NCBI GenBank assembly: GCA_051294375.1
Contig: CM119269.1
Span: 22,965,812-23,029,811, forward strand
Origin: Paraspadella gotoi
Taxonomy: Eukaryota; Animalia; Chaetognatha
DNA: 64,000 nucleotides
Direction of reading: 5' to 3'
Shown here one piece after another: positions 3,872 through 60,081 of this stretch; the stretch's first letter is position 1, and every line of letters begins with the position of its first letter. A program made the position numbers and the translations under genes. The notes below the pieces were generated by a model, which was not told the DNA's origin, did no database searches, and saw only the letters and a program-made list of their open reading frames with translations.

Positions 3872-4543
3872 CTGAAAAAAAAGGGAGAAATTTTTTAAAT
3901 ATGAAATGGAAAGAGTTGTCCTTTTAAAAAGTGTATGTTTGTATGTCTAGATATAGAATTGCGTATTGAGGATTTTTAATAGAATGAATTTATTAATTAT
4001 TGATTTATGATTATAAACCTGTGAAAATGGAAAATGGAATTAAAAAAGACAACACCCAATTAATCTTTTTTTTTCCTTTTATTTTTCTTTCTATAACTTC
4101 ACTTTTAAGTTCTTCCCTTTCTTTCTCTCTTCCTCTTTCTTTTCCTCTCTTCCTCCCTTTCTCTTCCTCCCTTTCTCTTTTCTTTCTCTTCCTCCCTTTC
4201 TCTTTCTCTTTCTCTTTCTCTTCCTCCCTTTCTCTTTCTCTTTCTCTTCCTCCCTTTCTCTTTCTCTTTCTCTTCCTCCCTTTCTCTTTCTCAAAACGGA
4301 AAAGGTTCCACCTCTATATAGAATTTTTCTTTTTTAATTTACCAATTCCTCGTTTATGTATTCAATGAATTTTTAATTGTAATTTTATATTTTTTACATA
4401 CTTGTATGTACATAATATTCATGTACGGCTCTCTTAAGATCCTGTGATTGTAAATGTGTTTTATTGACATTATGAGCAGAATAAATCAATCAATCAATCA
4501 ATCAATCAAACAATCAATCAATCAAACAATCAATCAATCAATC

Positions 4544-4636
<93 letters not shown>

Positions 4637-6627: not shown

Positions 6628-8147
6628 AGTGAGAGAGAGAGAGAGAGAAACTTCTACTGCTACAGAGACAAAAACAAAGTAATTTCGGTTCCACTTTTTT
6701 CATATTCAATTCTGTTCCCTCCTTCACTTCCTCTCTCTCTCTCTCTCTCCCTCTCTCTCTCTCTCCCTCTCTCTCTCCCTCTTTCTCTCACGCTCTTACT
6801 TTAAATCTACCTCTATCCCGTTCTCTCTCTTCCTCCTTCAAACTTCCTCTCTCTCCCTACTTCCCTCTCTATCTCTTCCTCTCTCTCTCTCTCACTCCCA
6901 CCCTCTTCCTTTCAATCCATCTCTATCCCCTTTTCTCTCTTCCTCCCTCTCTTCCTCTCCCTCTCTCTCTCTTCCTCTCCCTCTCTCTCTCCCTCTCTCT
7001 CCTAAAATTCTGATTTCTCCCTTCGTCTAAGAAAGAACAGTAATCTTATTAAAAGAGACGAAAGGGAAAAAAATGAGATACAAGGAAATAGAAAAAAAAA
7101 GAAAAAAAAGAAAAAAGATATACGAGGAAAATTACAAAATAAAGAAGACATAAGTACGGACAAAAAGTGAGAGGGAGGATTGCAGAAAATGTTTGACTAT
7201 TTTCTATGCTTCTTGGGTCGCGCGTTCGAGGCGTCGCCCGTCCGAAAGGTACGACGAGAGTTTTGGATAATTATTATTATATTTTCGTTTATCAAAACCC
7301 GTAGAAACTTTATTTCACACGGGCAGACGCATGATTCGATATTTGGATATTGAATGACACATTTTGGTAAAGGAGACTAAAAATTAACTTGACCTTAAAA
7401 GAGGCGGCTAATATCGAAAATACAAAGTGGTCAAATATGATTGACCTGACAGAGAGAGAGAGGCGAGGCTCAACATTTTCGTCAAGGACAGACGGAGGGA
7501 CAAGATACAGAAAGACCAAAAAAAAGGAAAAAAATAACAAAGAAAGATCATTGTTGAAGATCAGATTGACAGACCGACCGACAGACTGACAGACAGTCAG
7601 AATGACCGACAGAGAGACAGTAAGATTCAAAGACCGAAAGAGATACAGACGGAGATACTGATGAAGAGACAGAAAGATCGATAAAGATAGAGACGGACAG
7701 AAATACCGATAAACCGACAGACAGACCACATGATTGAGTGTCGGACAAACGGATCGGACCGACCGACCAAATGTAAACTATCAAAATCTAAATCCACAAA
7801 TATTTCTAAGAAATAAAAAAAGAAAAAAAAGTTTTTCTTTTTCCAATTTTTTTTCTAATTTCGTTTCAAGGATTTTATGAGCCAAGGAGAAATTTCTTTT
7901 CACTGCGCGTTTAGGCTCTTTAAGTTCTGCATTCTGTATCCCTAATGCCGTAATGCCGTAGTTTTTTAGCATCGCTGGCATCATTTTAATCTCATTGGTT
8001 GTACAATGTACATCTGCGCACGATCTTATGCTCCAAAATCCTGTACATATTTTGTAGTTCTTACTATTAAGCCTTATTGATTGCATTGACTAAGACAGCA
8101 TGTTCTACACCGCCTGCATCTTCGCTGCACTAAATATTCCTGCACCG

Positions 8148-8451
8148 CCTGCATCTTATTCATCTTCCTGCAGCGCCTGCATCTTCTTCATCTTCCTGCA
8201 GCGCCTGCATCTTATTTATCTTCCTGCAGCGCCTGCATCTTATTCATCTTCCTGCAGCGCCTGCATCTTCTTCATCTTCCTGCAGCGCCTGCATCTTATT
8301 CATCTTCCTGCAGCGCCTGCATCTTACTCATCTTCCTGCACCGCCTGCATCTTATTCATCTTCCTGCAGCGCCTGCATCTTATTCATCTTCCTGCAGCGC
8401 CTGCATCTTCTTCATCTTCCTGCACCGCCTGCATCTTCTTCATCTTCCTGC
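8148..8451. repeat. 28-bp minisatellite (CCTGCATCTTATTCATCTTCCTGCAGCG), ~11 copies
   Basis: Period measured from 8148 to 8176. The unit is not a multiple of 3. Confidence 0.92.
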
Positions 8452-8740
8452 ATTTCACCTCCGTAGTCTGTTAGCATTAAAAATCGATTATTTAAAAAAA
8501 AAACCATTAATATCGATAAAATGTTGAATTAAAAGTCATTTACAATTGAATGACTCTGAAGTGGAGCGGATGAGAGGAGCAAACGTATGGCGCATGAGTT
8601 GGAGGAAGAGGAGCCAATGACAGGAGCGGTCGAAGGGGATCAGGGGTCGAGGAATCGGCCTTATTTTCCCAGAGCGCCTTATTTCTGGTTAAATTTGGAA
8701 TCGAGGTTTAAAGATTAGGTTAGAGTTTAAGAATAAAGGT

Positions 8741-9360
8741 TAGGGGTAGCCGCACTCAATGGGGTGAGTCAAAAATTTTAAGAGTGAGTACATGCTCAAA
8801 CGAATATTTAGACATTTTTAAGAATACTTTCAATGGACAAAAAATTTCTAATATGGCTCTATACCCTAGTAATTAATTTTTTTAATATTTATTTTTAGAT
8901 AGGAAAGGCCAAAAATTTTTTTTAGATTTTTAAATTTTAAGACCAGATTCAGATAGCTCATAAAAAGTTGTCTACACAAAGTATGATTCTTTTTTAAATA
9001 TTTTTACGAATAAGTGTGTCAAAAATAAGAAAAAACCATAAAAAAAAATCATCATCATCATCATCTTTTGATGATTTTATCAGTATTTTTATATTTTCAC
9101 TTAGAAAATGTAAGAATTTTTATAAGCTGTAATTATATTTCTTGTTTAACTTTTTATGCTCTATCAGAATCCATCAAAAAATTTTAAGATTTAAAAAAAA
9201 TATTTTTTGCTCTATATAGTAATATAATATTTTTAATTAGGCTAGTACCCTCAGAAGAAAGCATTTTTGACAAAAAATCTTTTAATACCATAATCTATGG
9301 TCATGATAGATTATTTTAATGCCGTATACATTAGCATTTAAATTTCATCGGCTATGGCTA
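8741..9360 (+). mobile_element. ~600-bp foldback MITE, copy 1
   Basis: Termini TAGGGGTAGCCG...CGGCTATGGCTA. Internal inverted arms (GATTCAGATAGCTCATAAAAAGTT / AACTTTTTATGCTCTATCAGAATC) surround a central (ATC)n. A full-length reverse copy lies at 35128-35689. Confidence 0.8.
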
Positions 9361-9595
9361 ATTGGGTTAGGGATTGGGTTAGGGATAGGGTTAGAAATAA
9401 AGGTTAGTGATTGGGTTAGTGATTGGGTTAGGGATTGGGTTACGAAATAAAGGTTATAGTTGGTTGGCGACTTCGCCCATGGCGATATCGCCAGGGCTTT
9501 GCGATGTCGCCAGTCCACGCCACTTGGCGACCTCGCCAGTGATAAAAGTAGGAATATATGAAAGCGCAGCTAACACGGGGATGGAACATCAACCT

Positions 9596-10310
9596 ACAGG
9601 CTCCTCTCCCCAACCCTAACCCTAAACCCAAGCCTCCCCGTTCAACTTCCTTGCTTCCGCTAACCCTAACCCGGGCCTGGCCTCCCGTACATCTCCATGC
9701 CCTCCAACCTAACCGCTAACGCCTTCGAATGCATCAACACAGGGCCCCTCCCCCAACCCTAACCCTAAACCAAGCTTCCGTTCAACTCCATGCCCTCTGC
9801 CCCTAACCCAACCGAGCCCGGCCTCCGTACATTCTCCTTGCCTCAACCCTAAACTAACCGCCTTCGATGCATCAACCATGGGGTCCCTCCCCCAACCCTA
9901 ACCCTAAACCAAGCCTCACGTTAAGCTTCCTTGCCTCTTCCCCTAACCCTAACCCATGGCCCGGCCTCCCGTAATTCCTCCGTACCTCAACCCTAACCTA
10001 ACGCGCCTTCGATGCATCAACCATGGGTCCCGCTCCCAACCTAACCTAACCAAAGTCCTCCTGTTCAATCTCAATGCCTCTCCCAACCTAACCCTAACCC
10101 AGGCCGCGGCTCCGTACATTCTCCGTACCTCAACCTAACCCCTAATCGCCTCGATATACTAACCCACAGGGCCTCTCTCTTCCCAACCCTAAACCCTAAA
10201 CCGGCCCCAGGCCTCCCGTACCATCTCCGGCTTCAACCCTAATGTCCCTCGCCGTACCTTCCCTAAGCCTAACCCTAACACGGCCTCTGGTCAACACAAC
10301 ACGCCCTCCT
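9596..10310. repeat. ~143-bp tandem repeat containing CCCTAA blocks, ~4.5 copies
   Basis: Unit starts at about 9597, 9740, 9878, 10023 and 10167. Each unit contains CCCAACCCTAACCCTAAACC...GGCCTCCGTAC...CGCCTTCGATGCATCAAC. Confidence 0.85.
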
Positions 10311-10359
10311 ACCCCTATCCCTAAAATGACATTAAAATATAAGCTAAAATAACTTAACT

Positions 10360-11445
10360 TAACTCAACCCTAACCCTAAACTACTCCAAACCCTAACCTA
10401 AACTTACTCAACCCTAAACCCTAAACTACTACCAACTCAACCTAACCCCTAAACTACTACCCCTAACCTAACTACTACCAACTCACCCCTAACCCCTAAA
10501 CCAACTCAACCCTAACCTAACCCTAATCTGAGTTTAGTTTAGCGAAATCGCAATAACTAGAACGCTAGATGTAGTTCAGTGCGAAATCGCCATTTTGCTT
10601 TACCCTACCCTAACCTCACTAATCAACCCTAAACCCTAACCCTAACTCAAAAAATCCAAACATATCTACTAAAACTACTCAACCTAACCGTAAAAACACA
10701 ATTGTAAACTCTCTTACCCTAACCCATGCTTTGAAAGGGGCGATATTCACCCCTCTAACCCCTAACCCTAACTCGAGAATCTCATACGTCAAGCTAAAAT
10801 GCATTTGTAAACTCTCAAACCCTAACCCTTAACTCAAAAACTCAAATACGTCCTTATTTTTTATGTTTTGTAAATCCTTCAACCCTAACGCCTAAGCTAA
10901 AAAAGCGCGTTTGTAAACTCCCTAACCCTCAACCCTAACTTCGAAAAACTTAATACGTTCCTTATTTTTATATTTTGTAAACTCTTCAACCCTAAACCCT
11001 AGCTAAAAAACGCGTTTTAACTCCTAACCCTAACACCCTAACTTTGAAAAACTTAATACGTGCTGTCCTTAGTTTTTTATATTTTGTAAAGCTCTTCCAC
11101 CTAAACCCTAGCTAAAAACGCGTTTGTAAACTTCCAAACCTAACCCTACACTAAAATTTCAATTGTCCATATTTTTATATTTTGTAAACTCTTCAACCCA
11201 ACCTAGCTAAAAAACGCGTTGTAAACTCCCTAACCCTACACCCTAACGTCGAAAAACTCAATACGTCTTATTTTTATATTTTGTAAACTCTTCAACGCCT
11301 AACCCTAAGCGCAGAATCTCATACATTGTATTTTATTTTCATTAAATATCAACGTAAACTGCTTAACCCTAACCCCCCGTAGTTCAATATTAGTATTTTT
11401 TTACCGTGTTGTAAACTGCTCCAAACCCTAACCCGTAGTAACAGA
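10360..11445. repeat. CCCTAA/ACTACT repeats followed by ~105-bp tandem units with CCCTAA
   Basis: Recurring TTTGTAAACTC..CCCTAACCC..AATACGTCCTTATTTTTATAT..GCTAAAAAACGCG units with many indels. Confidence 0.8.
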
Positions 11446-12059
11446 TATTAATATTTTTGATTTCGTAGTACTTTCTTTGTTGCCCTGCCCGTGTGACGCC
11501 TAAAAATCGACTGTAACGAGGTTCCAACGCAATAGGATCCCATGTTAAACCGCCTTTCATGTGTTTGGCTCCCGGGACAAAATTTTTTCTCCCTAAACAG
11601 AGATTCTATATATTTGGGATGGTCTGACTTTTTCTGGAAATTTGAGTGTCTCTCCTACCGCTTATAAGAGAGCCTCTTTAACGTTATTCCTATAGGTTTT
11701 TTGGAACCGTCGTATTGAATCGAATTTCCTAGTGTAGAGGCAGGCACGGGCCATCGGCGCCCGAGCCGTGGCTGGGACTGAGAGCCATCGTTGTCTGCGT
11801 CGACTTTGATCGCCCCGGGAGACGGCATTGGTTCCTTGACCGTCACGGCCTCTCCGCCGGATATCCGGGTGGAGGGGGCAACGAACGGGCACGGTCTTTC
11901 GATAGACACTATGATGGTTCTTTGGCGGTCAGCGGCGTCGTCGACCGGCTGATGGCGAGGCAGCGCTGGCCGGGCACGGTCACGATACGATTAGACGGAT
12001 TTTTCGGCGATCCCCGGCGATCGTCGGACCGCAAGAATTTGAGTTCCCGCGTTGATCGA

Positions 12060-13170
12060 GGCAAGCGAGAGGAAGACCGGTGGTTAAAAAAATAATAAAA
12101 AATGTGGTGCAATGCGTGGGATTCGATCCGTTGATACGCCGTGACTACCGTCAGGGCGATCGCGGGGGAGATTTTCATGAAACGGTGAAACGCGGACCGG
12201 GTTCGTTCGCTTTGGAGATTCCCTGCGGTTGATCGACGGCAAGCGAGACGGCGACCGGTGTTTAAAAAATATAAAAAAAGGTGTGTGCAATGCGTGGATC
12301 GATCCCGTGGATTTCCGCCCGTGACTCGTCAGGGGCGATCGCGGGGGGAGAATTTCATGAAACGGTGGGAAACGTCGACCCGGGTTCAATTCGCTTCGTT
12401 CAATTTACGGGTAACGGGGATGTCGTAGGTAGAGAGAAAAGTCTGCGGGCCTCACGCCTTTTCTCTTCCCGCGCCGTCGCCAAATTATTCTATATAAATA
12501 AGCGCAGAATAATGTCCGGAGAATCGCCGTGACTTCCGTCAGGGCGATCCCGGGGGTAAAAAAAAATAATATAATTTTAAAAAAAAAATTGGTGATGAGC
12601 GGGTATCGAACCCGTGACTCGCCGTGACTCCGCAGGCGGCCGCTTTTCCGAAGGAAAAATCTTGGCGATCGGCGAAACTGGTTCCTTCGCTCCCTCGCCA
12701 AGGCTTTTCTCAATGTCCCGCGCCGTCGCCAATTTTTTGTAAATATAAATAAGCCGCAGATAATGTCCCGGAGAAAATCGCCGTGACTTCCGTCAGGGCG
12801 ATCCCGGGGTAAAAAAAAAAATATATAATATTTAAAAAAAAAATTGGTGCATGAGCGGGTATCGAACCCGTGACTGCCGTGACTCTGTCAGGGCGGCCCG
12901 CTTCTCTAAGGGGAAAAATCTAGGCGATCGGCTAGCTGGGTTCCTTCGCTCCTCGCTAAGAAGCTTTTTTTCTCAATGTCCCGCGCCGTCGCCAATTTTT
13001 CGTAATATAAATAAGTCGCAGATAATGTCAGAATCGCGTGACTCCGTCAGGGTGATCCGGGGGTAAAAAAAAAAATAAATATTAAAAAAAAAGTCATGCA
13101 ATGCACGGGTATCGAAACCCGTGAACTTCCCCGTGACTCCGTCAGGGCGAATCGCGGGGGAAAATCTCAG
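12060..13170. repeat. Complex 180-260-bp tandem array built on CCGTGACTCCGTCAGGGCGATC
   Basis: Core motif at about 12140, 12320, 12527, 12623, 12782, 12878, 13037 and 13131, alternating with A-tracts. Confidence 0.85.
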
Positions 13171-13529
13171 GCCCGACGAAATATGACAACAAATACCGCG
13201 AACGATGAAAAGCCGTAGCGTGAAATAAGAACGAAAGTCAAATGGCCCCCGGTGGTCGGTCTCCGATCGTCGGGGAAGGGAAAAAACGGACGGTAAAGTC
13301 CAGCCTAAGGTTTCACGCGGGTGACCGTTAATAAAAATTTCGTTTCTCTACCGTGACCTGAGAACGAATGAGCCAGGCAAGTAATTGACCATAGTTCACG
13401 TAGGCTATGAGCGATCTCGCAAGCAAGGGGATTCGATCATTTTTGTGTTTTTTGCTAACTCATGATCATTTTACTTGCCTCGAATGTAACAAAAATTAAC
13501 CGACACGAGAAACCCGCGGAGGGGAATAA

Positions 13530-15229
13530 CATGGCAAAATCTGCGAACGGAAATGGGTAAAAATTCGCTGTGGGAAAGAGACTGCTTACCCGTGTCCCCG
13601 AAATGAAATGCAATGGTTGCAAGTGGGGGGGGGGGGCGCAACCTATGCACGACTTCGTGAACACTTTTGGACACGCACGGGTTCCGAATGAACGACGCTT
13701 TCCAACTACGGAGGGAGAAGGACCTTTCGCAGGCGCGCAAGACAAAAACTGTGCGCTATTCCCTTGGGATGGAAAAAACTGGCCCGATGCCCCTGCATCG
13801 CCCGCGATAATGAGATCCACGAGCCCCAGGAAAATAACGACAACGGCCCTTGGAGCAGATGGAGGGTCGGTAAAGAGCGTGAACCGGCTATTGAGACTTC
13901 TTATGATCTCTCTACCCTCCAACAGCCATCTTCTTCCAACAACTCGTCCCGGTCTCCCTGTGGTTCGTACTTCCTTCTTCCTAAGGTAATTCGTAAGGGA
14001 GGGGAGGGTAACAAGTAGGTACAATGCGCTTGATAAATTTCGGGAAGCGGCCTGTTCAGGGTAATAACCTTTTTCACTGCTTACGAGATTCCCCAAGCTA
14101 AACTCCCGGAATGATCATAACGTAGTTGGATGGACGATCGCTACTCTCGCGCTACGGTGTCTGGCCCGTAATTCTGTTTCACATTGGGCCGGTTCATCGG
14201 CTTTCTGGCATCCTTTCAGCGCAGAATAACGCCTTTTGAAGCAAAAAAACTGAAAAAAGTTTTTGTCCTATCGAACGGTCCCTACTAACGCGCAGTGTAG
14301 CGGTCTCCAGCCTCGGAAGTCTACGTATGTACCATCGTCGCCCGCCGGGAAATATGAAGCCGTCAGAGATAGATAGGTGATCTGGAATGACAATCCGGAC
14401 GCGTGACACAAAGGCAAAAAACGCGTCAGACAGACCAAAGGTTACCCTGACCAAAAACCGGTAGACAAGATTTTAAATGTCAACTACGTCCCCTCTTCGG
14501 AACCCACGAACGAACATCGCTTCTTGAATATCCTCTCGTCCGGCAAAGAAGCGAGCTATAACACGGACTGAATAAACAATTATCGTTTCGGCATATGTAT
14601 CCCGCTTGAAGGTGTTCTCCAAACGAATGCAAAACGGCTGGGAAATCTTGCCCGCCTTACCCTTTCATCAATCTAACAAAGCGCGGGGGGTGAAGCGGAA
14701 ATCCGGGCCTTGGGTAGTGCAGGTCCGAATGGCGGACAAAAAATTAAAGCTCCGGATGCCATATGTCGTAAATGATCCCCTGTCAAAAGGGGCTTTCTGC
14801 TACGTTTTATTGCAACATACGTCCTTCTCTTCAAAACAGTCCCGCAGCCGTCACGGTATCTATTTTCCGCAGTATGATGGCCAGGCTCGGGGAACCTCGG
14901 CCTTTGCCGCTATCCTTGACCTTCGCTAGTCCCGGGATTGATGGTTTTAACATAACAACTCTACGGCGTGCTGTGCCCTCGCGGGCGCTGAGGACAGCCG
15001 GAACGGACAAGGGCGCGCTTGCCCAGGCGCTGGGTTCACCGCAGTGATTCACGTCCAGTTTTCTTTCGCGGATCGAATGCACAAAAAGTCCGCGAATCAT
15101 CGGAAAGTTGAACGACTAGTTACCCGCGAATTCGGGTCCGGAAGAAGTCATGGAAAAAACGTTTACGGCCAGCGTAAACTTGACTCACAACTGGGTCGGG
15201 GGGGGTCGGAAGAGGGTACGGGGATGTAG
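13530..15229 (+). pseudogene. Frameshifted C2H2 zinc finger + tyrosine recombinase gene (may be intact if the indels are read errors)
   Basis: Stitching + frames gives: YPCP(E)MKCNGCKWGG..ATYARLREHFWT.H (~13587-13680); LQTNAKRLGNLARLTLSSI (Arg codon 14635); GPWVVQV..K; YCNIRPSL; YFPQYDGQARGTS; GFNITTLRRAV; GALAQALG(H)TAVIHVQF(S). The motif order matches the YR catalytic fold (R...K...xxLR...GH...Y). The Tyr position reads TCT instead of TAT. AATAAA at 15285 follows the stop at 15229. Confidence 0.68.
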
Positions 15230-15394
15230 CTTTGAACTGTCCCTTTTGACTGCCTAAAAGATTCATGCCCAATTAATGTGTAGTAATAAACCATGTATTT
15301 TAATTTCAATGGTTGAGAACTCCATGGTGAAGAAGTAACAAAAAGTAGGGTGAAGTCCCGTCCCCGTGTAGCCTAGTTTTAACACGCGGGACAA

Positions 15395-16019
15395 GCATAA
15401 AAAGCAAACCGCCACGGGGTGGTCTCCGAATGAAAGATGGTAATGAAATAGCTGAGTGGTTCCCTGGTGGACTGCGGCTTATCCCTAGGCATAGTTTATA
15501 GCAAAACACAAGTTTCACGCCTAAGCAGGAAAAACAGGCGGAACGGGTATATGGCCAGCCGTGGGGTTGGTCTAAAATGAAAGATGGTATTGAAAAGACC
15601 GAGCGGTGTCCCCACAGTGGACTGCGGCTTCCTAGGCATGGGTATTTGGACCGAAAGCCAAGCGGATGTCCCACCCGGCGGCTTCCCAATCGTCGTAACA
15701 CATGCGTCCCGAACCATTGGGTACGTTTGGGTCCCCTGAGTAACTCAACTACCTCTACGGGCAACGTCTGGTAAGGGGAAGTTTCTTTCTCTGAGCCTAA
15801 GTACGCTCTTGGTTTTCCCGCGTGTGAAAAACATTTCTCAATAAGGGTCGCGGACCCTCGTGATCGCCAGGCCATGGTCTGGGTCGATTACACAAGAAGA
15901 GGTCCAAGCGGTGTCCCAACACGCCGGGAACTGCGGCTTCTAATCGTCCCGTAAACACATGCGTCGAACATTGGGTAAGTTCGGGTCCCCTGGAGTCAAC
16001 TCTACTCTCTACGTGGCAG
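15395..16019. repeat. Tandem repeats with GGTGTCCC..GGACTGCGGCTT core downstream of the YR gene
   Basis: Core at about 15460, 15605, 15665 and 15910. The block 15660-15770 recurs at 15905-16019. Confidence 0.7.
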
Positions 16020-16423
16020 NNNNNNNNNNNNNNNNNNNNNNNNNTTAGAAATAAAGGTTAGTGATTGGGTTAGGGATTGGGTTAAGGATTGGTTTAGGGA
16101 TTGGGTTAGGGATTGGGTTAGGGGTTTGGGTTAGGGATTTGGTAAGGGATTAACGTTCGGGTTTAGAGTTAGGGGATAAATATATTAAAAGATTATGGTG
16201 AAGGATTATGGATTTTGGATTAAGTTATTCATTTAGTAATAAATTTAAATTGAATATTATGATTAAAATTAAGTTTCGGGATTAAAGAACTAAAAAGGGA
16301 CGTTTTTGGAAAATATAGCCGTGAAATCTATAAGGGTGAGAGCAAAATTTGAAGAAGGGCTAAAATGGCTAAGATAAGTAAAAGTCACTGGTTGTAATTA
16401 AACCCCCGAGGTCTTTTGCCGTT

Positions 16424-16744
16424 GGCTTCATCCAATGAGTCACAGGGTCTTGTCCGAAGGCTTCATCCAATGAGTCACAGGGTCTTGTCCGAAGGCTTCA
16501 TCCAATGAGTCACAGGGTCTTGTCCAAAGGCTTCATCCAATGAGTCACAGGGTCTTGTCCAAAGGCTTCATCCAATGAGTCACAGGGTCTTGTCCAAAGG
16601 CTTCATCCAATGAGTCACAGGGTCTTGTCCAAAGGCTTCATCCAATGAGTCACAGGGTCTTGTCCAAAGGCTTCATCCAATGAGTCACAGGGTCTTGTCC
16701 AAAGGCTTCATCCAATGAGTCACAGGGTCTTGTCCAAAGGCTTC
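16424..16744. repeat. 35-bp minisatellite (GGCTTCATCCAATGAGTCACAGGGTCTTGTCCAAA), 9 copies
   Basis: Exact 35-bp period, near-identical units, no spacers. Confidence 0.95.
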
Positions 16745-16819
16745 TCGTTCGAGTCGCATTCTCTTTCTTCTATTCAATTTTAATGAGGAAGACTAATCGT
16801 AAAATGGAGTCGTCCTTTT

Positions 16820-17010
16820 ATACAATTGAAACATTCTTTAAAGTATTATATCACTTCATTGGAAAGCCGGGTACTCTGGGAGTGAATTCACGAGGCTGTG
16901 AGAGAGTCTTGATTGAAAGCTTGCCATTGTCATTATTTTGTAAGAGTCTGGGACGAATATCTTATTTATTAAATTAATAGATAATTTTATATTGCTTGTA
17001 TCAATTATAT
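16820..17010. repeat. Dispersed ~200-bp repeat (SINE-like or other), copy 1
   Basis: Shares TACAATTGAAAC..CTGTGAGAGAGTCTT.ATTGAAAGCTTGC..GCTTATTTATTAAAT with 17808-17945, 25922-26155 and (reverse) 26290-26423. Confidence 0.7.
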
Positions 17011-17281
17011 AATATCACAAACAATTGAAAAATAATTGATTAATATTCCCGTCAGACTTAACTGCTTGGGAGACCATGTGGCTAAAACCACGAACCTTTA
17101 GGTTAGTAGACGATTGGTTTTTCCTACGGCTGAAATGACAGTTCTCAACGCTTGGAGAATTTTTAATCTACCATAATATAAATCTTTATTTTCCCATTTT
17201 TATCTTTAACTTATTCTTTATTCAAAACTTAATTCCCTTTATTCCATAAGGGAGAGACGACATCTTGAAAATTTGAAGTCT

Positions 17282-17346
<65 letters not shown>

Positions 17347-17412
17347 TCTCTCTTTCTCGATTCAAGTTTATTGCAAATTCGCAAGTCCCTCTGGGGGCAG
17401 AATTCGGCCTAA

Positions 17413-17686
17413 GGAAAAGCTGATTACTGAAATGGGGTAAAAGCATCCCGCTCAACTCCAGCACAGCGTTTCTGCTGGGGAAAAGCTGATTACTGAAATG
17501 GGGTAAAAGCATCCCGCTCAACTCCAGCACAGCGTTTCTGCTGGGGAAAAGCTGATTACTGAAATGGGGTAAAAGCATCCCGCTCAACTCCAGCACAGCG
17601 TTTCTGCTGGGGAAAAGCTGATTACTGAAATGGGGTAAAAGCATCCCGCTCAACTCCAGCACTGCGTTTCTGCTGGGGAAAAGCTC
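17413..17686. repeat. 66-bp minisatellite, 4 near-identical copies
   Basis: Period measured from 17413 to 17479. Each unit holds a CCAGCA...TGCTGG inverted pair. Confidence 0.95.
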
Positions 17687-35127: not shown

Positions 35128-35689
35128 TAGCCATAGCCGATTAAATTTAAATGCTAATATATACAGTATTAAGATAATCTATCATAAGCATAGATTGTAG
35201 TATTAAAATATTTTTTGTTAAAAATTCTTTTTTCTGAGGGTACTAGCTTAATTAAAATTATTTTATTACTACATAAAAAAACATTTTTTTAAAATATAAT
35301 TATAGCTTTTAAAAATTCTTACGTTTTTTCAGTAAAAATCTAAAAAAACCTATAAAATCTTCAAAAGATGATGATGATGACAAGGTTTTTACGGTTTTTC
35401 CTTTTTTTGACCTACTTATGATAAAAATATTTAAAAAAGAATTATAATTTTGAAAGGAAATTGATGATGTCTAAGAAAGGAAATTCACGATACTTTGTTC
35501 AGATAACTTATAAAAAAATTTTTTGGTCTTTCCTATCTATATATAAATAGTAAAAAATTTATTATTATGGAAGAGCCATATAAAAATGTTTTTGTCCATT
35601 GAAAGTATACTTAAAAATGTAAAAAATTTAATTTCATCTTTTACTCAATCTAAATTTTTGACTCACCCCATTGAGTGTGGCTACCCCTA
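35128..35689 (-). mobile_element. ~600-bp foldback MITE, copy 2
   Basis: Reverse complement of 8741-9360, including both termini (TAGCCATAGCCG...GTGGCTACCCCTA). Confidence 0.8.
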
Positions 35690-35857
35690 ATGCCGGTCCC
35701 CTTAATGACCCTACTTATTCGCTGACGACCTTTGCCCTTAGACGTTTCAACCTTTGCCCTTAAATTTACTTTCTTTATCTTCAAATCAATTCTCAGTTAA
35801 TTAATTAATTCATTACTTCATTACTTAAGTAATTAATTACTTTTAAAAATTATTTTT

Positions 35858-36062
35858 GGCATTATTTTCCCAGAACTCCCTATTTTATCTTAAATTCTAA
35901 ATTAACTTAATTTTTTATGGTTGGGAATTAAGTTAGGGATTAAAGCTATTGATTAAAGTTAGGGACTTGTGTTAGTGTTTTGGGTTAGAGATTTGGGTTA
36001 GGGATTAATTTATAGATTTAAGAACATATTTAAAATAAATATTAAAGTTAAAATTAAATTCT
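35858..36062 (+). mobile_element. TTAGGG-core TIR element, partial copy
   Basis: Starts GGCATTATTTTCCCAGAAC and is followed by TTAGGG-like units. Confidence 0.5.
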
Positions 36063-41922: not shown

Positions 41923-43570
41923 CAGAGAGTAACAGAGAGAGGCAATAAGATAATATTTTTAAATACGATGTATACTAAATAAAACAAAAATGGAATTATG
42001 TTACTTATTTTGGCTTTAATTTCTAAGAACGACCCATGTCATCTTAAATATGAAATTAAATTCTAGGGATTCTCTGGGAAGAGAGGGTTAACCTTTATTT
42101 TGCTAACTAAATTATGAAATTTTGTAAATTCAAATGTTAATGAAAATTGAAAAAAATTACTTGTACCAATATATATATATTTATGAATAAAAAGTATTGT
42201 AAAATAAAGTTGTGCTAGGGAGTAGTCTATTAAACACTATTCACTCTTTAGTATTTACTATTAAATAATTACTATTTACTATTTGCTATTTACTATCTGC
42301 TATTTTCTATTTTCTATTTTCTATTTTCTATTTTCTATTCTCTATTTTCTATTTTCTATTTACTATTTATTATTTTCTATTTACTATTCACTATTCACTA
42401 TTTACTATTTACTATTACTATTTGCTTTTTACTATTTCCTATTATTTTTTTCTATTTTCTATTTACTATTTACGACTCAATGTTTATGAGAATTTCTTAC
42501 TTCTCTTTTTCCTTTTTTATTGTCCATTTTTGCCTTCTAAGTTTGAATATCTGAATAAATTTCATTCATAAATTTTTTCTTAAAACCACCTCGTTAATGT
42601 TTGACACACATTTAACAACTGTTCAAAAAAATTAACATTTTAAAAAGAAAGGGAGTAAAATTTGGAGAGAGAGAGAGAGAGAGAGAGAGAGANNNNNNNN
42701 NNNNNNNNNNNNNNNNNNNNNNNNNNNNNNNNNNNNNNNNNNNNNNNNNNNNNNNNNNNNNNNNNNNNNNNNNNNNNNNNNNNNNNNNNNNNNNNNNNNN
42801 NNNNNNNNNNNNNNAAGAAAGAAAGAAAGAAAGACAGAAAGACAGAAAGAAAGAGATAAAGAGACAAAATGAAACGAGAGAGGCTTAGAAAGAAATAAAG
42901 AACAAAAAAAGAGAAAGAGAGAGAGAGACAGAGAAAGAGAGAGATAGAGAGTTAGAAAGGCGAGTCTCAACTTCCAACTTATATCCAATTGATTTTTTCT
43001 TATTTGTCTTCACAATTTATTTCTCCTTTTTCTCAAAAAATTTCAAAGATTTCGGTTTTTTAAAATTTTGAATAAAAACAAAGAAAATAAAACTAAGAAG
43101 GAACCACCCTTTATTAAAACCACCCTTTATTAAAACCACCCATCCTGCTAACCTGAGTGGAAAATAACCACCCCGCATCCTTCTGCAGAAAAACCACCCG
43201 TTCGTTAAACCGTCCACTGATTTTTAACCACCCACTTCAAAAAAATAAAAAAATCCGTAAAGAACTTTAAAACTGAATTTAAAGTCAGCCATCCATATCG
43301 CCTCTCTCTCTCTCTCNNNNNNNNNNNNNNNNNNNNNNNNNNNNNNNNNNNNNNNNNNNNNNNNNNNNNNNNNNNNNNNNNNNNNNNNNNNNNNNNNNNN
43401 NNNNNNNNNNNNNNNNNNNNNNNNNNNNNNNNTCTCTCTCTCAACGTTGATTATGAGAAATCCTATTTTCCTCTCACCTCCTCTTTGCGTAATGAAGGGG
43501 AAAACCTTTCCGTTCTGTTGCTTCGCTTAATCCCTCTCTTCCTCCCTCTCTCCCTCCATTCCTCCCTCTG

Positions 43571-44353
43571 CATACGAATCTTCCTCACCCATTGCGCCCG
43601 ATGCCACCTTCACTTTTCGTTTCGTCGTCGTCCCCGCGTCGCCGCGCCTCTCGCACCTGCGACGGCATCTGTCCCGAGTGCGCCCACGCTCAGTTCAAGT
43701 CGAAGGACGTGAGTCTAACTGACGAAGAGAAGGCGGAGGCGAGCGAGGCAAGGCGACGGTCGAGCACGAGCCGAGGAGTCGTCTCCAGATTCATCGAGGA
43801 CAATTCGTTCTTGGAGAAGTTGGCAGCGGACACTGACGCAGTTGATAACTTAAAAAAAAAAACAAAAAAAAAACATTTTCGCTTGGTTCTCGTTTCTCGC
43901 TTTATTTTTTTTGGTTCGTTTATTTATAATGATAATTACTAATATATTTATTGGTACTGTTGATCTGATTGAATATAATGATTGGCATAATTTACAAAAA
44001 AAGATTATTATTGATTTAGCTAATTAAGATGCGCGTGCGTCTGAAACTGGAATAATGGTTTAAAAATAACATATGATTTTAAAGATGATTGACTGATTGA
44101 CAATCGTGAAATATTCTCTACGGTCAAACCTTTTTGCTCGAAATCTCTCAATCTTTACGATCAGTCACTATTCCACTCCCATAGTTACAACCTTTTTTTT
44201 TACAAAAACGACCTAACCATTACCACTCTCCGTCTAGACGCCGCCCTTAAAATTGATTAGAGAGAAACGAAATCGTTACTGAAATATTTTTTTTGTCTTT
44301 AATTGATTGAAGTTGATGACAAGCGACTTCACGCCTTTTCCACTCGCTCTCTA

Positions 44354-44404
<51 letters not shown>

Positions 44405-45048
44405 ATCTCCTCTCTCTCTCTCTCTTTCTCTCTCTCAAAATAAATGATATTTACAATTGAAAATGATGTTGATTAAACATCATTCAATTTAATAATACTA
44501 CAGTTTCTTTAATCTGAAGTGATACAAAAGACTTGATTAAACTCGTAATTCTTCAGTGTATAATATTTTTATAACATTTATTAGTTAGAAAACTAGTTGA
44601 CGTTTAGTTGATCTAAAATAATGTTAAAATTTGCTAATAATAAATAATCACAATGGGTATCAAGCGTGGAGTCCTTTCTTCATTTCTTTTCTTCCAAATT
44701 TTAACATTTAATTTTTAACGCTGATTGTGAGTAAGTAAAGTAGTCAAACAACCTCACATGATAAACTGACCGACCAACATATAAATTGTCATTTCTCACA
44801 AGACTCACAACGGTCAAATTTCCCTGGACTCACCACGTACGCCTTCTTACTCTTTACTTTCTCATATCGAATCACAGTGAACCTCCGCTTTTATTCACAT
44901 ATGTGTTTATAAATTCTTTCTATTCAGACTTTGAAGAGAGGAAGGAGAGAGCGAGATGAGAGAGAGCGGAGAGAGAGAGAGAAACGGAGAGAGAGAGACG
45001 ACAGCGCCCCCGTGAGACTGAGAGAGACAGACATTAACGAGAGGAGAA

Positions 45049-45140
<92 letters not shown>

Positions 45141-45192
45141 GAGAGAGAGAGAGCATGTACACTGTCAATCAAAACCTTCCTCAAAGACTTTA

Positions 45193-45236
<44 letters not shown>

Positions 45237-45249
45237 GTTCTCTCTCTTC

Positions 45250-45280
<31 letters not shown>

Positions 45281-46408
45281 TTCTCGCTTCTCTCTAATCG
45301 TCGTTCTCAAAAAATTTTCGGAAAAATAATCTTTTTTTTCTCTCCAAAAATTCGATTTGAATTTTTTCGGATAAAAAAATCCCGACCAATCATTTTTTCA
45401 TCGTGATTTCGTGAAATTGTTGTCGTCTCGTCGTCGTCGTCCGTCGTCGTCGTCGACGATCATTGTTAATATCCGTCAAATTCGGCTTATACACAATATA
45501 TTTTAAATACGATGTCGCTGTTTGTATTATTTTTTTCATTTCTTGGTGTAATATTAAAAAGAGAAAATTATTGAAACTAGAGAGAGAGAGAGAGAGGAGA
45601 GAGAGGAGAGAGAGAGAGAGAGAGAGTGAGAGTGTTGACAGAGGACAAGTTACAGAGAAAAAAAAAAACGATATAATATTTTTTAATACATGTATACTAA
45701 ATAAAACAAAAATGGAATTTGTTACTTATTTGGCTTTAATTTCTAAGCACGAAACCCATGTCATCTTAAATATGAAATTAAATTCGTAGGGATTCTCTGG
45801 GAAGAGAGGGTTAACCTTTTTTGCTAACTAAATTATGAAATTTTGTAAATTCAAATGTTATGAAAATTGAAAAAAATTTACTTGTACCAATATATATATA
45901 TTTATGAATAAAAAGTATTGTTAAAATAAAAGTTGTGCTAGGGAGTAGTCTATTAAACACTATTCACTCTTTAGTATTTACTATTAAATAATTACTATTT
46001 ACTATTTGCTATTTACTGATCTCTATTTTCTATTTTCTATTTTCTATTTTCTATTTTCTATTCTCTATTTTCTATTTCTATTTACTATTTATTATTTTCA
46101 TATTTACTATTCACTATTCACTATTTACTATTTACTATTACTATTTGCTTTTTACTATTCCTATTTTTTTTTCTATTTTCTATTACTATTTCCGATCAGA
46201 TGTTTATGAGAATTTCTTACTTCTCTTTTTCCTTTTTTATTGTCCATCTCTAAGTTTGAATATCTGAATAAATTTCATTCATAAATTTTTTCTTAAAACA
46301 CCTCGTTAATGTTTGACACTCTTCAACTGTAAAAAAAATTAACATTTTAAAAGATAAAGGGAGTAAAATTTGGGAGAGAGAGAGAGAGAGAGAAGTGAGA
46401 GAGAGAGA

Positions 46409-46439
<31 letters not shown>

Positions 46440-46914
46440 AAAGAAAGAAAGAAGACAGAAAGACAGAAATAAAGAGATAAAGAGACAAAATGACGGAGAG
46501 ATTAGAAAGAAATAAAGAACAAAAAAAGAGAAAGAGAGAGAGAGACAGAGAAGACAGATATGAGATGTTAGAAAGGCGAGTCTCAACTTCACTTATATCC
46601 AATTGATTTTTTCTTATTTGTCTTCACAATTTATTTCTCCTTTTTCTCAAAAAATTTCATAAGATTTCGGTTTTTTAAAATTTTGAATAAAAACAAAGAA
46701 AATAAAACTAAGAAGGACCACCCTTATTAAAAACCACCCTTTATAAAACCACCCATCCTGCTAACCTAGTGGAAAATACCCACCCCGCATCCTCTGCAGA
46801 AAAAACCACCCCGTTCGTTAAACCGTCCACTGATTTTTAACCACCCACTTCAAAAAAAATAAAAAATCCGTAAAGAACTTTAAAACTGAATTTAAAGTCA
46901 GCCATCCATATCGC

Positions 46915-46982
<68 letters not shown>

Positions 46983-47287
46983 TCTCTCTCTCTCTCAACG
47001 TTGAATGAGAAATCCTATTTTCCCTCTCCTCCTCTTTGCGTATGAGGGGAAAACCTTTCCGTTCTGTTGTTCGCTCTAATCCTCTCGGTCCATCCCTCTC
47101 TCCCTCCATCCTCCTCTTACCTCCCTCTTTCCTCCTCTTCTGCTCCAATCCCTCTCTTCTCCCTCTCTCCTCCCTCCTCCTCTTATCCTCCCTCTTTTCT
47201 CCTCTCCTCCCTCTCTCCCTCTCTCTTTCCTCTATCTTCTTCTCCCTCCTCCCTCTGGCTCTCCCTCTTTCACTAACCTCTCTTTTC
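43571..47287. other. Probable false duplication (long-read gap fill) of 40090-43570
   Basis: Indel-rich copy of the preceding block, near letter-for-letter identical to 49898-53340 at a constant offset of 6327. Ends at a 25-N gap. Confidence 0.8.
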
Positions 47288-49190: not shown

Positions 49191-49636
49191 GACTCTTTTT
49201 TCAAAAGCGCCCAATTTTTGGCTTTTTTTTCCAAAAGCGCCTTTTTTCTTTTGGTTAAATCTAAAACTTAATTTTAACATTAATGTTTAAAACTCTAATC
49301 TGATACCAAACTCATATGATGAGCGGGGTTTTCCGTCTTCAAAACCTAATCCTTAATCTTTAACCTTAATCAATAACCTAATCTTAATCTTTATCTTTAA
49401 TCCAAACCTAATCCTTAATCTTAAGACCAAATCCTTAATCTTTAACCTTAATCTATAACTTAATCCCTAACATTAACCTAATTCTTAAGCCTAATCTATA
49501 ACCCTAACCCCGAAGCCTAACCCTAACTTCCTAATCCCTCAACCCAGATCACTAACTAAATCTCTAACCTCTAACCTCTAATCTTTAACTCAATTCAGAA
49601 TTAAATATGAAATGGGGCATTCTTGGAAAAGAAGGC
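49191..49636 (-). mobile_element. TTAGGG-core TIR element, reverse copy
   Basis: Ends GACTCTTTTTTCAAAAGCGCC and GGGGCATTCTTGGAAAAGAAGGC surround a CCTAAT/CCCTAA array. Confidence 0.55.
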
Positions 49637-49860
49637 ACCATAATTTCTCCCGTCCTCGATGTCAACCAACTTCCCTCAGTCGAGGCTAAAGATTTGGGCT
49701 AAAACAACATTAAATAATCACAACAACAGCAACAACTGGTTAAATGACGACGACGACAACGACGACGACAACAACAACAACAACGAAATCGCTTCGTCTT
49801 CCTGTTGTTTGTTTATCCAAAAGAAAAATGAGGAAGAAATAAGTTTTCTCTCGATGGGCG

Positions 49861-49897
<37 letters not shown>

Positions 49898-50680
49898 CAT
49901 ACGAATCTTCCTCACCCATTGCGCCCGATGCCACCTTCACTTTTCGTTTCGTCGTCGTCCCCGCGTCGCCGCGCCTCTCGCACCTGCGACGGCATCTGTC
50001 CCGAGTGCGCCCACGCTCAGTTCAAGTCGAAGGACGTGAGTCTAACTGACGAAGAGAAGGCGGAGGCGAGCGAGGCAAGGCGACGGTCGAGCACGAGCCG
50101 AGGAGTCGTCTCCAGATTCATCGAGGACAATTCGTTCTTGGAGAAGTTGGCAGCGGACACTGACGCAGTTGATAACTTAAAAAAAAAAACAAAAAAAAAA
50201 CATTTTCGCTTGGTTCTCGTTTCTCGCTTTATTTTTTTTGGTTCGTTTATTTATAATGATAATTACTAATATATTTATTGGTACTGTTGATCTGATTGAA
50301 TATAATGATTGGCATAATTTACAAAAAAAGATTATTATTGATTTAGCTAATTAAGATGCGCGTGCGTCTGAAACTGGAATAATGGTTTAAAAATAACATA
50401 TGATTTTAAAGATGATTGACTGATTGACAATCGTGAAATATTCTCTACGGTCAAACCTTTTTGCTCGAAATCTCTCAATCTTTACGATCAGTCACTATTC
50501 CACTCCCATAGTTACAACCTTTTTTTTTACAAAAACGACCTAACCATTACCACTCTCCGTCTAGACGCCGCCCTTAAAATTGATTAGAGAGAAACGAAAT
50601 CGTTACTGAAATATTTTTTTTGTCTTTAATTGATTGAAGTTGATGACAAGCGACTTCACGCCTTTTCCACTCGCTCTCTA

Positions 50681-50731
<51 letters not shown>

Positions 50732-51381
50732 ATCTCCTCTCTCTCTCTCTCTTTCTCTCTCTCAAAATAAATGATATTTACAATTGAAAATGATGTTGAT
50801 TAAACATCATTCAATTTAATAATACTACAGTTTCTTTAATCTGAAGTGATACAAAAGACTTGATTAAACTCGTAATTCTTCAGTGTATAATATTTTTATA
50901 ACATTTATTAGTTAGAAAACTAGTTGACGTTTAGTTGATCTAAAATAATGTTAAAATTTGCTAATAATAAATAATCACAATGGGTATCAAGCGTGGAGTC
51001 CTTTCTTCATTTCTTTTCTTCCAAATTTTAACATTTAATTTTTAACGCTGATTGTGAGTAAGTAAAGTAGTCAAACAACCTCACATGATAAACTGACCGA
51101 CCAACATATAAATTGTCATTTCTCACAAGACTCACAACGGTCAAATTTCCCTGGACTCACCACGTACGCCTTCTTACTCTTTACTTTCTCATATCGAATC
51201 ACAGTGAACCTCCGCTTTTATTCACATATGTGTTTATAAATTCTTTCTATTCAGACTTTGAAGAGAGGAAGGAGAGAGCGAGATGAGAGAGAGCGGAGAG
51301 AGAGAGAGAAACGGAGAGAGAGAGACGACAGCGCCCCCGTGAGACTGAGAGAGACAGACATTAACGAGAGGAGAAAGAGAG

Positions 51382-51467
<86 letters not shown>

Positions 51468-51519
51468 GAGAGAGAGAGAGCATGTACACTGTCAATCAAA
51501 ACCTTCCTCAAAGACTTTA

Positions 51520-51563
<44 letters not shown>

Positions 51564-51576
51564 GTTCTCTCTCTTC

Positions 51577-51607
<31 letters not shown>

Positions 51608-52735
51608 TTCTCGCTTCTCTCTAATCGTCGTTCTCAAAAAATTTTCGGAAAAATAATCTTTTTTTTCTCTCCAAAAATTCGATTTGAATTTTTTCGGATA
51701 AAAAAATCCCGACCAATCATTTTTTCATCGTGATTTCGTGAAATTGTTGTCGTCTCGTCGTCGTCGTCCGTCGTCGTCGTCGACGATCATTGTTAATATC
51801 CGTCAAATTCGGCTTATACACAATATATTTTAAATACGATGTCGCTGTTTGTATTATTTTTTTCATTTCTTGGTGTAATATTAAAAAGAGAAAATTATTG
51901 AAACTAGAGAGAGAGAGAGAGAGGAGAGAGAGGAGAGAGAGAGAGAGAGAGAGTGAGAGTGTTGACAGAGGACAAGTTACAGAGAAAAAAAAAAACGATA
52001 TAATATTTTTTAATACATGTATACTAAATAAAACAAAAATGGAATTTGTTACTTATTTGGCTTTAATTTCTAAGCACGAAACCCATGTCATCTTAAATAT
52101 GAAATTAAATTCGTAGGGATTCTCTGGGAAGAGAGGGTTAACCTTTTTTGCTAACTAAATTATGAAATTTTGTAAATTCAAATGTTATGAAAATTGAAAA
52201 AAATTTACTTGTACCAATATATATATATTTATGAATAAAAAGTATTGTTAAAATAAAAGTTGTGCTAGGGAGTAGTCTATTAAACACTATTCACTCTTTA
52301 GTATTTACTATTAAATAATTACTATTTACTATTTGCTATTTACTGATCTCTATTTTCTATTTTCTATTTTCTATTTTCTATTTTCTATTCTCTATTTTCT
52401 ATTTCTATTTACTATTTATTATTTTCATATTTACTATTCACTATTCACTATTTACTATTTACTATTACTATTTGCTTTTTACTATTCCTATTTTTTTTTC
52501 TATTTTCTATTACTATTTCCGATCAGATGTTTATGAGAATTTCTTACTTCTCTTTTTCCTTTTTTATTGTCCATCTCTAAGTTTGAATATCTGAATAAAT
52601 TTCATTCATAAATTTTTTCTTAAAACACCTCGTTAATGTTTGACACTCTTCAACTGTAAAAAAAATTAACATTTTAAAAGATAAAGGGAGTAAAATTTGG
52701 GAGAGAGAGAGAGAGAGAGAAGTGAGAGAGAGAGA

Positions 52736-52766
<31 letters not shown>

Positions 52767-53241
52767 AAAGAAAGAAAGAAGACAGAAAGACAGAAATAAA
52801 GAGATAAAGAGACAAAATGACGGAGAGATTAGAAAGAAATAAAGAACAAAAAAAGAGAAAGAGAGAGAGAGACAGAGAAGACAGATATGAGATGTTAGAA
52901 AGGCGAGTCTCAACTTCACTTATATCCAATTGATTTTTTCTTATTTGTCTTCACAATTTATTTCTCCTTTTTCTCAAAAAATTTCATAAGATTTCGGTTT
53001 TTTAAAATTTTGAATAAAAACAAAGAAAATAAAACTAAGAAGGACCACCCTTATTAAAAACCACCCTTTATAAAACCACCCATCCTGCTAACCTAGTGGA
53101 AAATACCCACCCCGCATCCTCTGCAGAAAAAACCACCCCGTTCGTTAAACCGTCCACTGATTTTTAACCACCCACTTCAAAAAAAATAAAAAATCCGTAA
53201 AGAACTTTAAAACTGAATTTAAAGTCAGCCATCCATATCGC

Positions 53242-53309
<68 letters not shown>

Positions 53310-54370
53310 TCTCTCTCTCTCTCAACGTTGAATGAGAAATCCTATTTTCCTCTCACCTCCTCTTTGCGTATGGGGGGAAAACCTTTCCGTTCTGTTGTTC
53401 GCTTAATCCCTCGTCTTCATCCCTCTCTCCCTCCATTCCTCCTCTTACCTCCCTCCTTTCCTCCTTTTCTGCTCCAATCCCTCTCTCCCCCTCTCTCCCT
53501 CCCTCCCTCCCTCTTTTCTCCTCTCCTCCCTCTCTCTTCCTCTCTCTTTCTCTATCTTCTCTCCCTCCTCCCTCTCTCTCCCTCTTTCACTAACCTCTCT
53601 TTTCTCTCTTCCTTCTTCACCGAATCAGGCGCCTCTCGCGTTGGATCCATTAATCACAGTCTAGACGAGTCACCGCTTTCACATCTTCATAGCTTTCTTT
53701 CACCTTTCTTTTTCTTCTCTTCACAGCTTCTCTTTCACCTTGCTTTTTTCTCTTCACAGCTTCTCTTCACCTTCTTTCTTCTCTTCACAGCTTCTCTTTT
53801 CACCTTTTCTTTTCTTCTCTTCACAGCTTCTCTTTCACCTTCTTTTCTTCTCTTCACAGCTCTCTTTCACCTTTCTTTTCTCTCTCACAGCTTCTCTTTC
53901 ACCTCACTCTCTTTTTCTTATTTATTTAACATTTCGTTTCTTGACTCCAAAATTTTAATATACAATTTTCTCAAACGTCAAACAAACCTTTTTAATTAAA
54001 CATGCCAGTTTTAATTAAAATGTATTAAGATATTTATGTATAGATATTTATAATACGCTATACGTATCTTATTAACTTTTTCTTTAAAGTTTTCTAATTT
54101 TTATTCATTTATGTTATTTTTAAAAATTCTTTTAAATATAATGACAGATATTTAAATTTTAATAAAAATAACAACCAAAAATTTGATAGACTGGGGAATA
54201 TTTAGTATTAAAGAAGAGAGAGAGACAGAGAGAGAGAGAAAGAGACAAGAGAGAGAGAGAGCGAGTTATTTGTACCCTTCACCAATGCTTCTCAGCCCAC
54301 GAAGAGTTTCCATCAGAAAACTCATGTTTTGCTCATCGGAGGCCAAAGTCGAAACATTTTATGGATGAAT

Positions 54371-59364: not shown

Positions 59365-60081
59365 GGGCCTTATTTTCCCAGAACATCCCATTTTATGTTA
59401 AATTCGGAATTTGGTTATTTTTTTTCTAGTTAAAGATTAGATTAAAGGTTAAATATAAGGGTTTATGTTAATGATTAATATTAGGGATATAGTTTGTGAT
59501 TAGGGTTAGGAATAGGTTATTGATTAATGTTTAGGGTTAAAGGAAAACGGGAAAACAGTTTGTAGTCGGGCATTGCCTAGGTTCACCCCGCCTAGAATCA
59601 TAACTCTTTCAGTTGTGACCCGGTGGCTCATTGAGAAAAGCTATCAGTTCATGACCATTAGGTACCGGGTTCAATCTTAACCCGGTACCTACCCTGCGGG
59701 AAGCGTGAGGACGGTTTTAAGCCGCTTTGGGGGTATGGCAAACCCTCAAGCTTGGTTCCAAGCCTTGGGACCCGTTCCATGGCTGTTAGAGGGGGTTATA
59801 AAAGTTACGGACAGTCATCTTCAGCCCACGTAGCGCTTTATCCACAAGTTTAGTGTTAAGGTTTAGGATTAGGATAGGATTAGCGATTATGGTTTTGGAT
59901 TTGGATTAGGGTTTAGGATTGGTTTATAAGTTTAAAAACATTTTAATGTTAAATATCAAAGTTAAATTTAAAACCTGGGCTAATGGGGCACTCTCAGAAA
60001 AGAGAGCTGTTAAATATTAAAGATTAAAATGAAATTCCGGAATAAAGGAAAAGAAAAGGAGCGTTTTTAGAAAAGAGAGTT
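59365..60081 (+). mobile_element. TTAGGG-core TIR element carrying a nested SINE
   Basis: Starts GGGCCTTATTTTCCCAGAAC and ends GGAGCGTTTTTAGAAAAGAGAGTT, with TTAGGG-like units on both sides of the SINE. Confidence 0.55.
59617..59847 (+). mobile_element. tRNA-derived SINE-like element
   Basis: A-box-like TGGCTCATTG (59624) and B-box-like GGTTCAATC (59668) at tRNA-like spacing, followed by a non-tRNA body. Confidence 0.55.

Follow-up and report, generated by a model that had tools for sequence, protein, structure and literature searches.

A putative Crypton-type element with a tyrosine-recombinase gene in a telomere-like array of Paraspadella gotoi

Introduction

Does a stretch of chaetognath DNA in which fragments of a tyrosine recombinase (YR) are scattered over three reading frames encode a real recombinase, and what kind of element carries it? 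The question was raised by a first-pass annotation, which had proposed a hidden YR domain within an insert free of reverse transcriptase (RT) and RNase H. We studied the locus in a window of 64,000 nucleotides (the whole stretch of DNA analysed), which is rich in repeats, microsatellites and N gaps, with a GC content of about 37%.

Results

The recombinase gene and its broken frame

The gene and its recognisable parts are as follows:

13531..15230, + strand: recombinase gene of about 530–560 codons, frameshifted in the assembly, from the first ATG (context AACATGG); start and end approximate
13609..13680, + strand: candidate C2H2 zinc finger found by eye, with CxxC followed, on the other side of a G run, by LxxH
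14626..14664, + strand: putative first-Arg box (NAKRLGNL), about 105–110 codons upstream of the second Arg; place and order fit, score not significant
14922..15066, + strand: C-terminal catalytic box with TTLRR, LAQALG-His and, in contigs, Tyr at His+9; seen by profile, ESM Atlas and contigs

Some 340 codons of the gene lie upstream of the catalytic domain. The candidate zinc finger gave no Pfam match when its G run was bridged by X. All seven peptides from which the annotation had pieced its domain together were located on the + strand, in the frames it had given:

14626-14664, + strand, frame +1: NAKRLGNLARLTL
14711-14725, + strand, frame +2: WVVQV
14808-14831, + strand, frame +3: YCNIRPSL
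14861-14884, + strand, frame +2: YFPQYDGQ
14949-14975, + strand, frame +3: NITTLRRAV
15015-15035, + strand, frame +3: ALAQALG
15038-15061, + strand, frame +2: TAVIHVQF

The frame breaks were compared with short-read contigs from public runs of one organism. One contig of 2196 bases, from run X2, covers 13131-15372; the comparison with the window shows 55 other letters and 153 gap letters. Gaps thus outnumber substitutions, and on balance the window is longer by 67 bases. Past a gap of 25 N, at which the noise ends, the flank is identical to the contigs (0 differences over 307 and over 282 bases). More indels than substitutions, surplus bases and a stop at an N gap are the error pattern of unpolished long reads. 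Within 14937-15105 (169 bases), 8 single-base indels relative to the window are common to the contigs of X2, X5 and X7. With them the contigs give an open frame, which covers 169 of about 1700 coding bases. Since three runs share these indels and the contigs restore a frame, the frameshifts are most likely long-read errors, and we consider the gene likely to be intact in the genome and broken only in the assembly. The two sites found to vary between runs are both third codon positions and silent, which is a weak indication. Error-rich gap fills can conceal whole genes from Pfam and phmmer.

In the letters of the window neither the in-frame His nor the Tyr of the C-terminal box is present. The contigs supply both, in the open frame and at a spacing of nine, equal to that of viral YRs (residues read by hand from the contig tables). 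One motif of the annotation needs correcting: where it had placed a second His, the contigs have Gln, and the GHxxxxHxxxY variant is absent from the contigs of all three runs. Because these give a His, a Tyr nine residues on and no second His, the peptide TAVIHVQF is partly a product of error.

Evidence for a tyrosine recombinase

The unaltered frame-3 piece 14922-15035 matched clusters of PF00589 (Phage_integrase) in the ESM Atlas with a top score of 0.90 (recognition 2765), a score attained by 4–10 of 100 shuffled control proteins; the ten best family-bearing matches all belonged to one family or clan. The match shared 141 features, fewer than the 170 typical of same-family matches, which fits a distant relative.

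A frameshift-aware search, which the annotation had recommended, was run as a scan with three profiles, built from 60 phage integrases, from 18 YRs of viral contigs and from a mix of 30 and 18. The viral set came from 27 loci, 22 of which had the motif in frame; 18 ORFs of these were kept, the other 4 being a fragment, a duplicate and 2 that lacked a YR context. With the mixed profile, 14922-15039 ranked first on both strands of the 64 kb (15.6 bits, runner-up 8.2), and none of 100 block shuffles reached its score. The phage-only profile missed it. The full viral-only profile gave 4.5 bits at the locus, under the background peaks, and ranked it second once cut to the C-terminal box. An X read-through along the breaks shown by the contigs (57 residues, no stop) reached E 6.6e-5 with the mixed profile, a result matched by 0 of 1000 shuffles, E 0.0013 with the viral profile and E 0.21 with the phage profile.

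In an alignment with 11 viral YRs, the C-terminal box matches their conserved Arg and Leu-Ala. Thr stands in place of the His of HxxR, a position held by Ser, Thr or Asn in most of the viral YRs aligned. For the first-Arg box, RLGNLARLTL was the best local placement with two of the three profiles, at only 1.7–3.1 bits, not significant alone; this piece had no usable match in the ESM Atlas (recognition 1324). The profile scan did not locate the strand of the catalytic Lys.

Sequence databases returned little. Pfam (17 single-frame pieces), PHROGs (8) and PDB (1) gave nothing relevant for these error-garbled pieces, and in Pfam this included DUF3504 of CryptonA, for which the garbling makes the test a weak one. 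Word-indexed protein searches with the frame-3 piece, the frame-1 piece and the viral-YR alignment, the last covering longer proteins, had 0 matches, as had phmmer with the frame-1 translation against 1.84 billion representatives. The NITTLRRAV pattern occurred at 17 metagenomic loci, with YR context in 0 of 17; two animal-YR motifs used as patterns met 3 unrelated loci and 0 loci; and no relative was found in viral contigs.

Taken together, the locus as read in the contigs carries the HxxR Arg, a His at the His/Trp position and a Tyr nine residues on, and we conclude that the recombinase is a real YR gene. The hidden domain of the annotation is upheld for its C-terminal box (Atlas 0.90, mixed profile 15.6 bits), while its first-Arg box and Lys strand are not significant alone.

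Anatomy of the element and its insertion site

The gene lies within an insert that splits a host repeat. The parts are:

8656..16321, no strand assigned: host repeat bounded by short terminal inverted repeats; a GGTTAG array lies inside it (9361-9456 and 16045-16151), and both the YR element and a nested repeat at about 8743-9360 interrupt the host repeat
9457..16019, + strand: visible YR element, with a GC content of about 50% (37% outside it); its left end falls within 9452-9458, and its right end disappears into a gap
Left junction, read from the sequence: ...AAAGGTTA then TAGTTGG
9465..9538, no strand assigned: four palindromic, hairpin-forming TGGCGAnnTCGCCA boxes at the left end; they are candidates for sites bound by the recombinase or for arm-type sites
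9587..11307, no strand assigned: left arm of 143-bp (3.8 copies) and 107-bp (5 copies) tandem units
11311..12037, no strand assigned: non-repeated spacer of 727 bp, no recognised product
12038..13170, no strand assigned: internal tandem units of about 175 and 254 bp
15381..16019, no strand assigned: right arm, built of two tandem pairs whose units are spaced by about 150 and 255 bp; reads much deeper than over the gene
16020..16044, no strand assigned: gap of nominally 25 N

The TGGCGAnnTCGCCA pattern, which was derived from the sequence itself, has 4 matches in the window, all within 9465-9538, where 0.03 would be expected, and the palindromes fold as DNA with a z of -3.6. There are 50 CCCTAA hexamers within 9457-11450, and contigs of three runs link 10386 to 11445. 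No terminal inverted repeat was found between the two visible arms, and Rfam had no match in 8000-17500. A bacterial promoter scan, which is not relevant here, stayed at chance level.

The left junction follows directly after GGTTA within the GGTTAG array, at one site. In two runs a contig links 9349 to 9452; this joint is ambiguous and might stem from a further insertion site whose core is similar, or from a different allele of the locus. On this one insertion site and one ambiguous joint, the element may prefer telomere-like repeats. Relatives of the host repeat without the YR insert are present at 49220-49636, 59366-60074 and 35858-36060. A 52-bp match between 9391-9442 and 16045-16096 looked like a possible target-site duplication but was discarded as such, because it equals one unit of the 49-bp array of the host.

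Copy number

The gene contigs were deeper than the flank contig in three runs (4072–4623 against 179 in X1, 399–764 against 20.6 in X7, and 734 against 7.9 in X5), that is, by about 20–90 times, bearing in mind that summed depth is not copy number. This points to an element present in roughly tens of copies. Depth at position 9476 was 20 (X1), 17 (X2), 13 (X5) and 35 (X7) times that of the gene, and in the right arm it exceeded the gene's 7–46 times, which would fit the vicinity of an end common to short derivatives. Among the 15 of 33 contig joints listed, none led from the left to the right arm. The gene formed unbranched contigs of 2196, 1516 and 969 bases in three runs. Such long unbranched contigs suggest near-identical, young copies, and the visible element is thus probably young.

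Discussion

Relation to known systems

In the visible insert a YR is the sole enzyme, with neither RT nor RNase H, as in Cryptons in the broad sense. For CryptonV the reference cited is Kapitonov and Jurka 2012, in Repbase Reports. According to the available text of Kojima 2022 (PMC8869645), which cites a Repbase report, CryptonV elements are YR-encoding DNA transposons in Repbase, some families of which insert specifically into microsatellites. The present element is likewise an animal DNA transposon with a YR by our reading; compared by description, it differs in its target, a telomere-like array inside another repeat.

Nimaviral YRs are described in the accessible part of Kawato 2023 (PMC10871703) as having C2H2 and SAM-like domains and targeting (TAACC/GGTTA)n; they are not near relatives of the Crypton groups compared there (A, F, I and S) and have decapod relatives outside viruses. 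Our element also lies beside GGTTA, its YR is unlike those of DIRS, and a C2H2 finger possibly precedes its catalytic domain. By the same account nimaviral YRs reside in virus genomes of hundreds of kb, whereas the element has one gene in about 6.5 kb and no viral gene was seen in it. The element is probably near the target-specific CryptonV or the nimavirus-type YRs, both being compared by description only.

Cryptons and their derivatives were defined by Kojima and Jurka 2011 (PMC3212892), in whose available sections non-autonomous copies outnumber autonomous ones. CryptonA and CryptonI of animals are YR-only, lack terminal repeats and have abundant non-autonomous derivatives; the element resembles them in the first respect and, judged by its visible arms and deep ends, may do so in the other two. 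The descriptions at hand in that source say nothing of tandem arms of such length, of CCCTAA arrays or of four palindromes at an end, all of which are seen here. Parts of PMC5753468, PMC9004415, PMC3706591 and PMC7805220 served as background only.

The YRs of the viral contigs (IMG/VR, loci L019-L045) have a similar C-terminal box, S/T-x-x-R-R/K-A-V followed by LA-x-x-M/L-G-H-x8-Y. Their first-Arg box is P-x-R-x-D, in contrast to N-x-x-R-x-G in the element, their proteins are about 320–400 aa long, and there is no full-domain match. These contigs are probably Polinton-like viruses or virophages. As a separate observation, they hold a YR family of 315–410 aa that Pfam mostly misses (3 of 11 scanned match PF00589).

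The element would, by analogy, work like a Crypton, and both YR-only DNA transposons with microsatellite targets (CryptonV) and nimavirus-type YRs have already been described, so the undescribed family suggested by the annotation stays a conjecture. In the open literature, a scope that leaves out Repbase Reports and most subscription journals, we found no description of this anatomy, nor the ends, target and mechanism of any eukaryotic YR-only transposon worked out. Animal YR-only transposons outside CryptonA are barely described there.

Competing explanations

The alternative that fares best sees the insert as the terminal 6.5 kb of a much larger integrated element, for instance an endogenous virus resembling nimaviruses or Polintons, with its integrase gene close to one end and its body hidden in the gap. 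The insert does stop at a gap of only nominal length, the nearest profile match is with YRs on viral contigs, and the junction after GGTTA recalls the integration of nimaviruses at (TAACC/GGTTA)n, as given in the text available from PMC10871703. However, the visible insert has no room for a second gene, its largest other non-repeated stretch being the 727-bp spacer, and the depth of the right arm is that of an end shared by short derivatives. We regard a larger virus as unlikely.

Next in order, and improbable as well, the YR gene might be carried as a passenger by a composite repeat built from unrelated high-copy families, and be spread by a rolling-circle mechanism or by a DDE enzyme in trans, with the deep arms being independent families. 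Depth shifts more than tenfold between the arms and the gene, and the region is a nest of repeats. Against this, the joint of 10386 to 11445, seen in three runs, has about the depth of the gene in two of them and twice that depth in one, the visible arms lack a terminal inverted repeat between them, and the two variable gene sites tested are silent.

A retrotransposon of DIRS, Ngaro or TATE type, its RT unreadable through errors or within the gap, is a further alternative: TATE encodes a YR and inserts at GGG/TTA in telomeric repeats (accessible text of PMC6681497), and the gap conceals sequence. By that source both TATE and DIRS/Ngaro encode RT and RNase H. We searched with an RT-RNase H profile from 12 DIRS-type loci and a YR profile from 6 of these. 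The former gave at most 4.6 bits in the visible insert, while held-out RT genes into which errors had been introduced at the observed rate scored 93–270 bits in 12 of 12 cases; the latter, of six sequences, did not match the C-terminal box. Both statements of the first-pass annotation, that the visible insert has no RT or RNase H and that its YR is unlike DIRS recombinases, are therefore in agreement with our results, and we hold a retrotransposon to be very improbable. Separately, RT-RNase H genes of DIRS/Ngaro type occur on twelve contigs filed under prokaryote assemblies (L169-L180), in several cases together with a YR; these contigs are probably eukaryotic contamination.

The least credible view, that the YR motifs are chance products of a three-frame reading of noisy non-coding DNA, could appeal to sequence-database searches that were all without a match and to the first-Arg and Lys signals, but two methods (mixed profile and ESM Atlas) independently assign one piece to the YR family, and the contigs, independent of the annotator's guess, supply His-x8-Tyr in an open frame.

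Preferred reading and proposed mechanism

We therefore favour, with a probability of roughly 70%, a DNA element that is present in multiple copies, measures at least 6.5 kb and has a single YR-like gene, likely intact; the element likely moves as a Crypton-type DNA transposon. Going by how YR elements work, the recombinase would bind the terminal palindromes and recombine the two ends of the element into a DNA circle via a phosphotyrosine intermediate. The junction of the circle might then recombine with a short GGTTA-like core in telomere-like arrays, a target suggested by one site. Gene-less derivatives that retain both ends could be moved in trans.

A more specific version is tentative and, in our view, rather doubtful. 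It would be a young, small, non-viral transposon with a nimavirus-type telomere-motif integrase, homing to GGTTA in telomere-like arrays dispersed within other repeats and using its own CCCTAA arrays as decoys or self-targets. It might come from the pool that supplied large animal DNA viruses with integrases, and its enzyme might be a eukaryotic recombinase that is compact and sequence-specific and acts on attachment ends of four boxes.

If the family is young, its short, defined left end and its candidate GGTTA target would open excision, the formation of circles and the choice of target to experiment. The element could also link Cryptons with the integrases of endogenous nimaviruses.

Other repeats in the window

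The 0.6-kb repeat at 8743-9360 recurs at 35128-35690 with 73% identity; its ends are asymmetric and it sits in a GGTTAG or a 31-bp array. Both copies adjoin TA, and they could be another gene-less YR-type or a TA-targeting element. A different stretch of 0.3 kb (59540-59850) interrupts the GGTTAG array in a further host-repeat copy, and such arrays may be general landing sites.

Highly homogeneous minisatellites with units of 28, 35 and 66 bp (8137-8452, 16424-16744 and 17413-17685; 95–99% matches) stand on both sides of the nest. Farther along, 43500-47000 and 49830-53320 are near-identical, about 6.3 kb apart and with identical ORF translations, being either a recent tandem duplication or an assembly duplicate.
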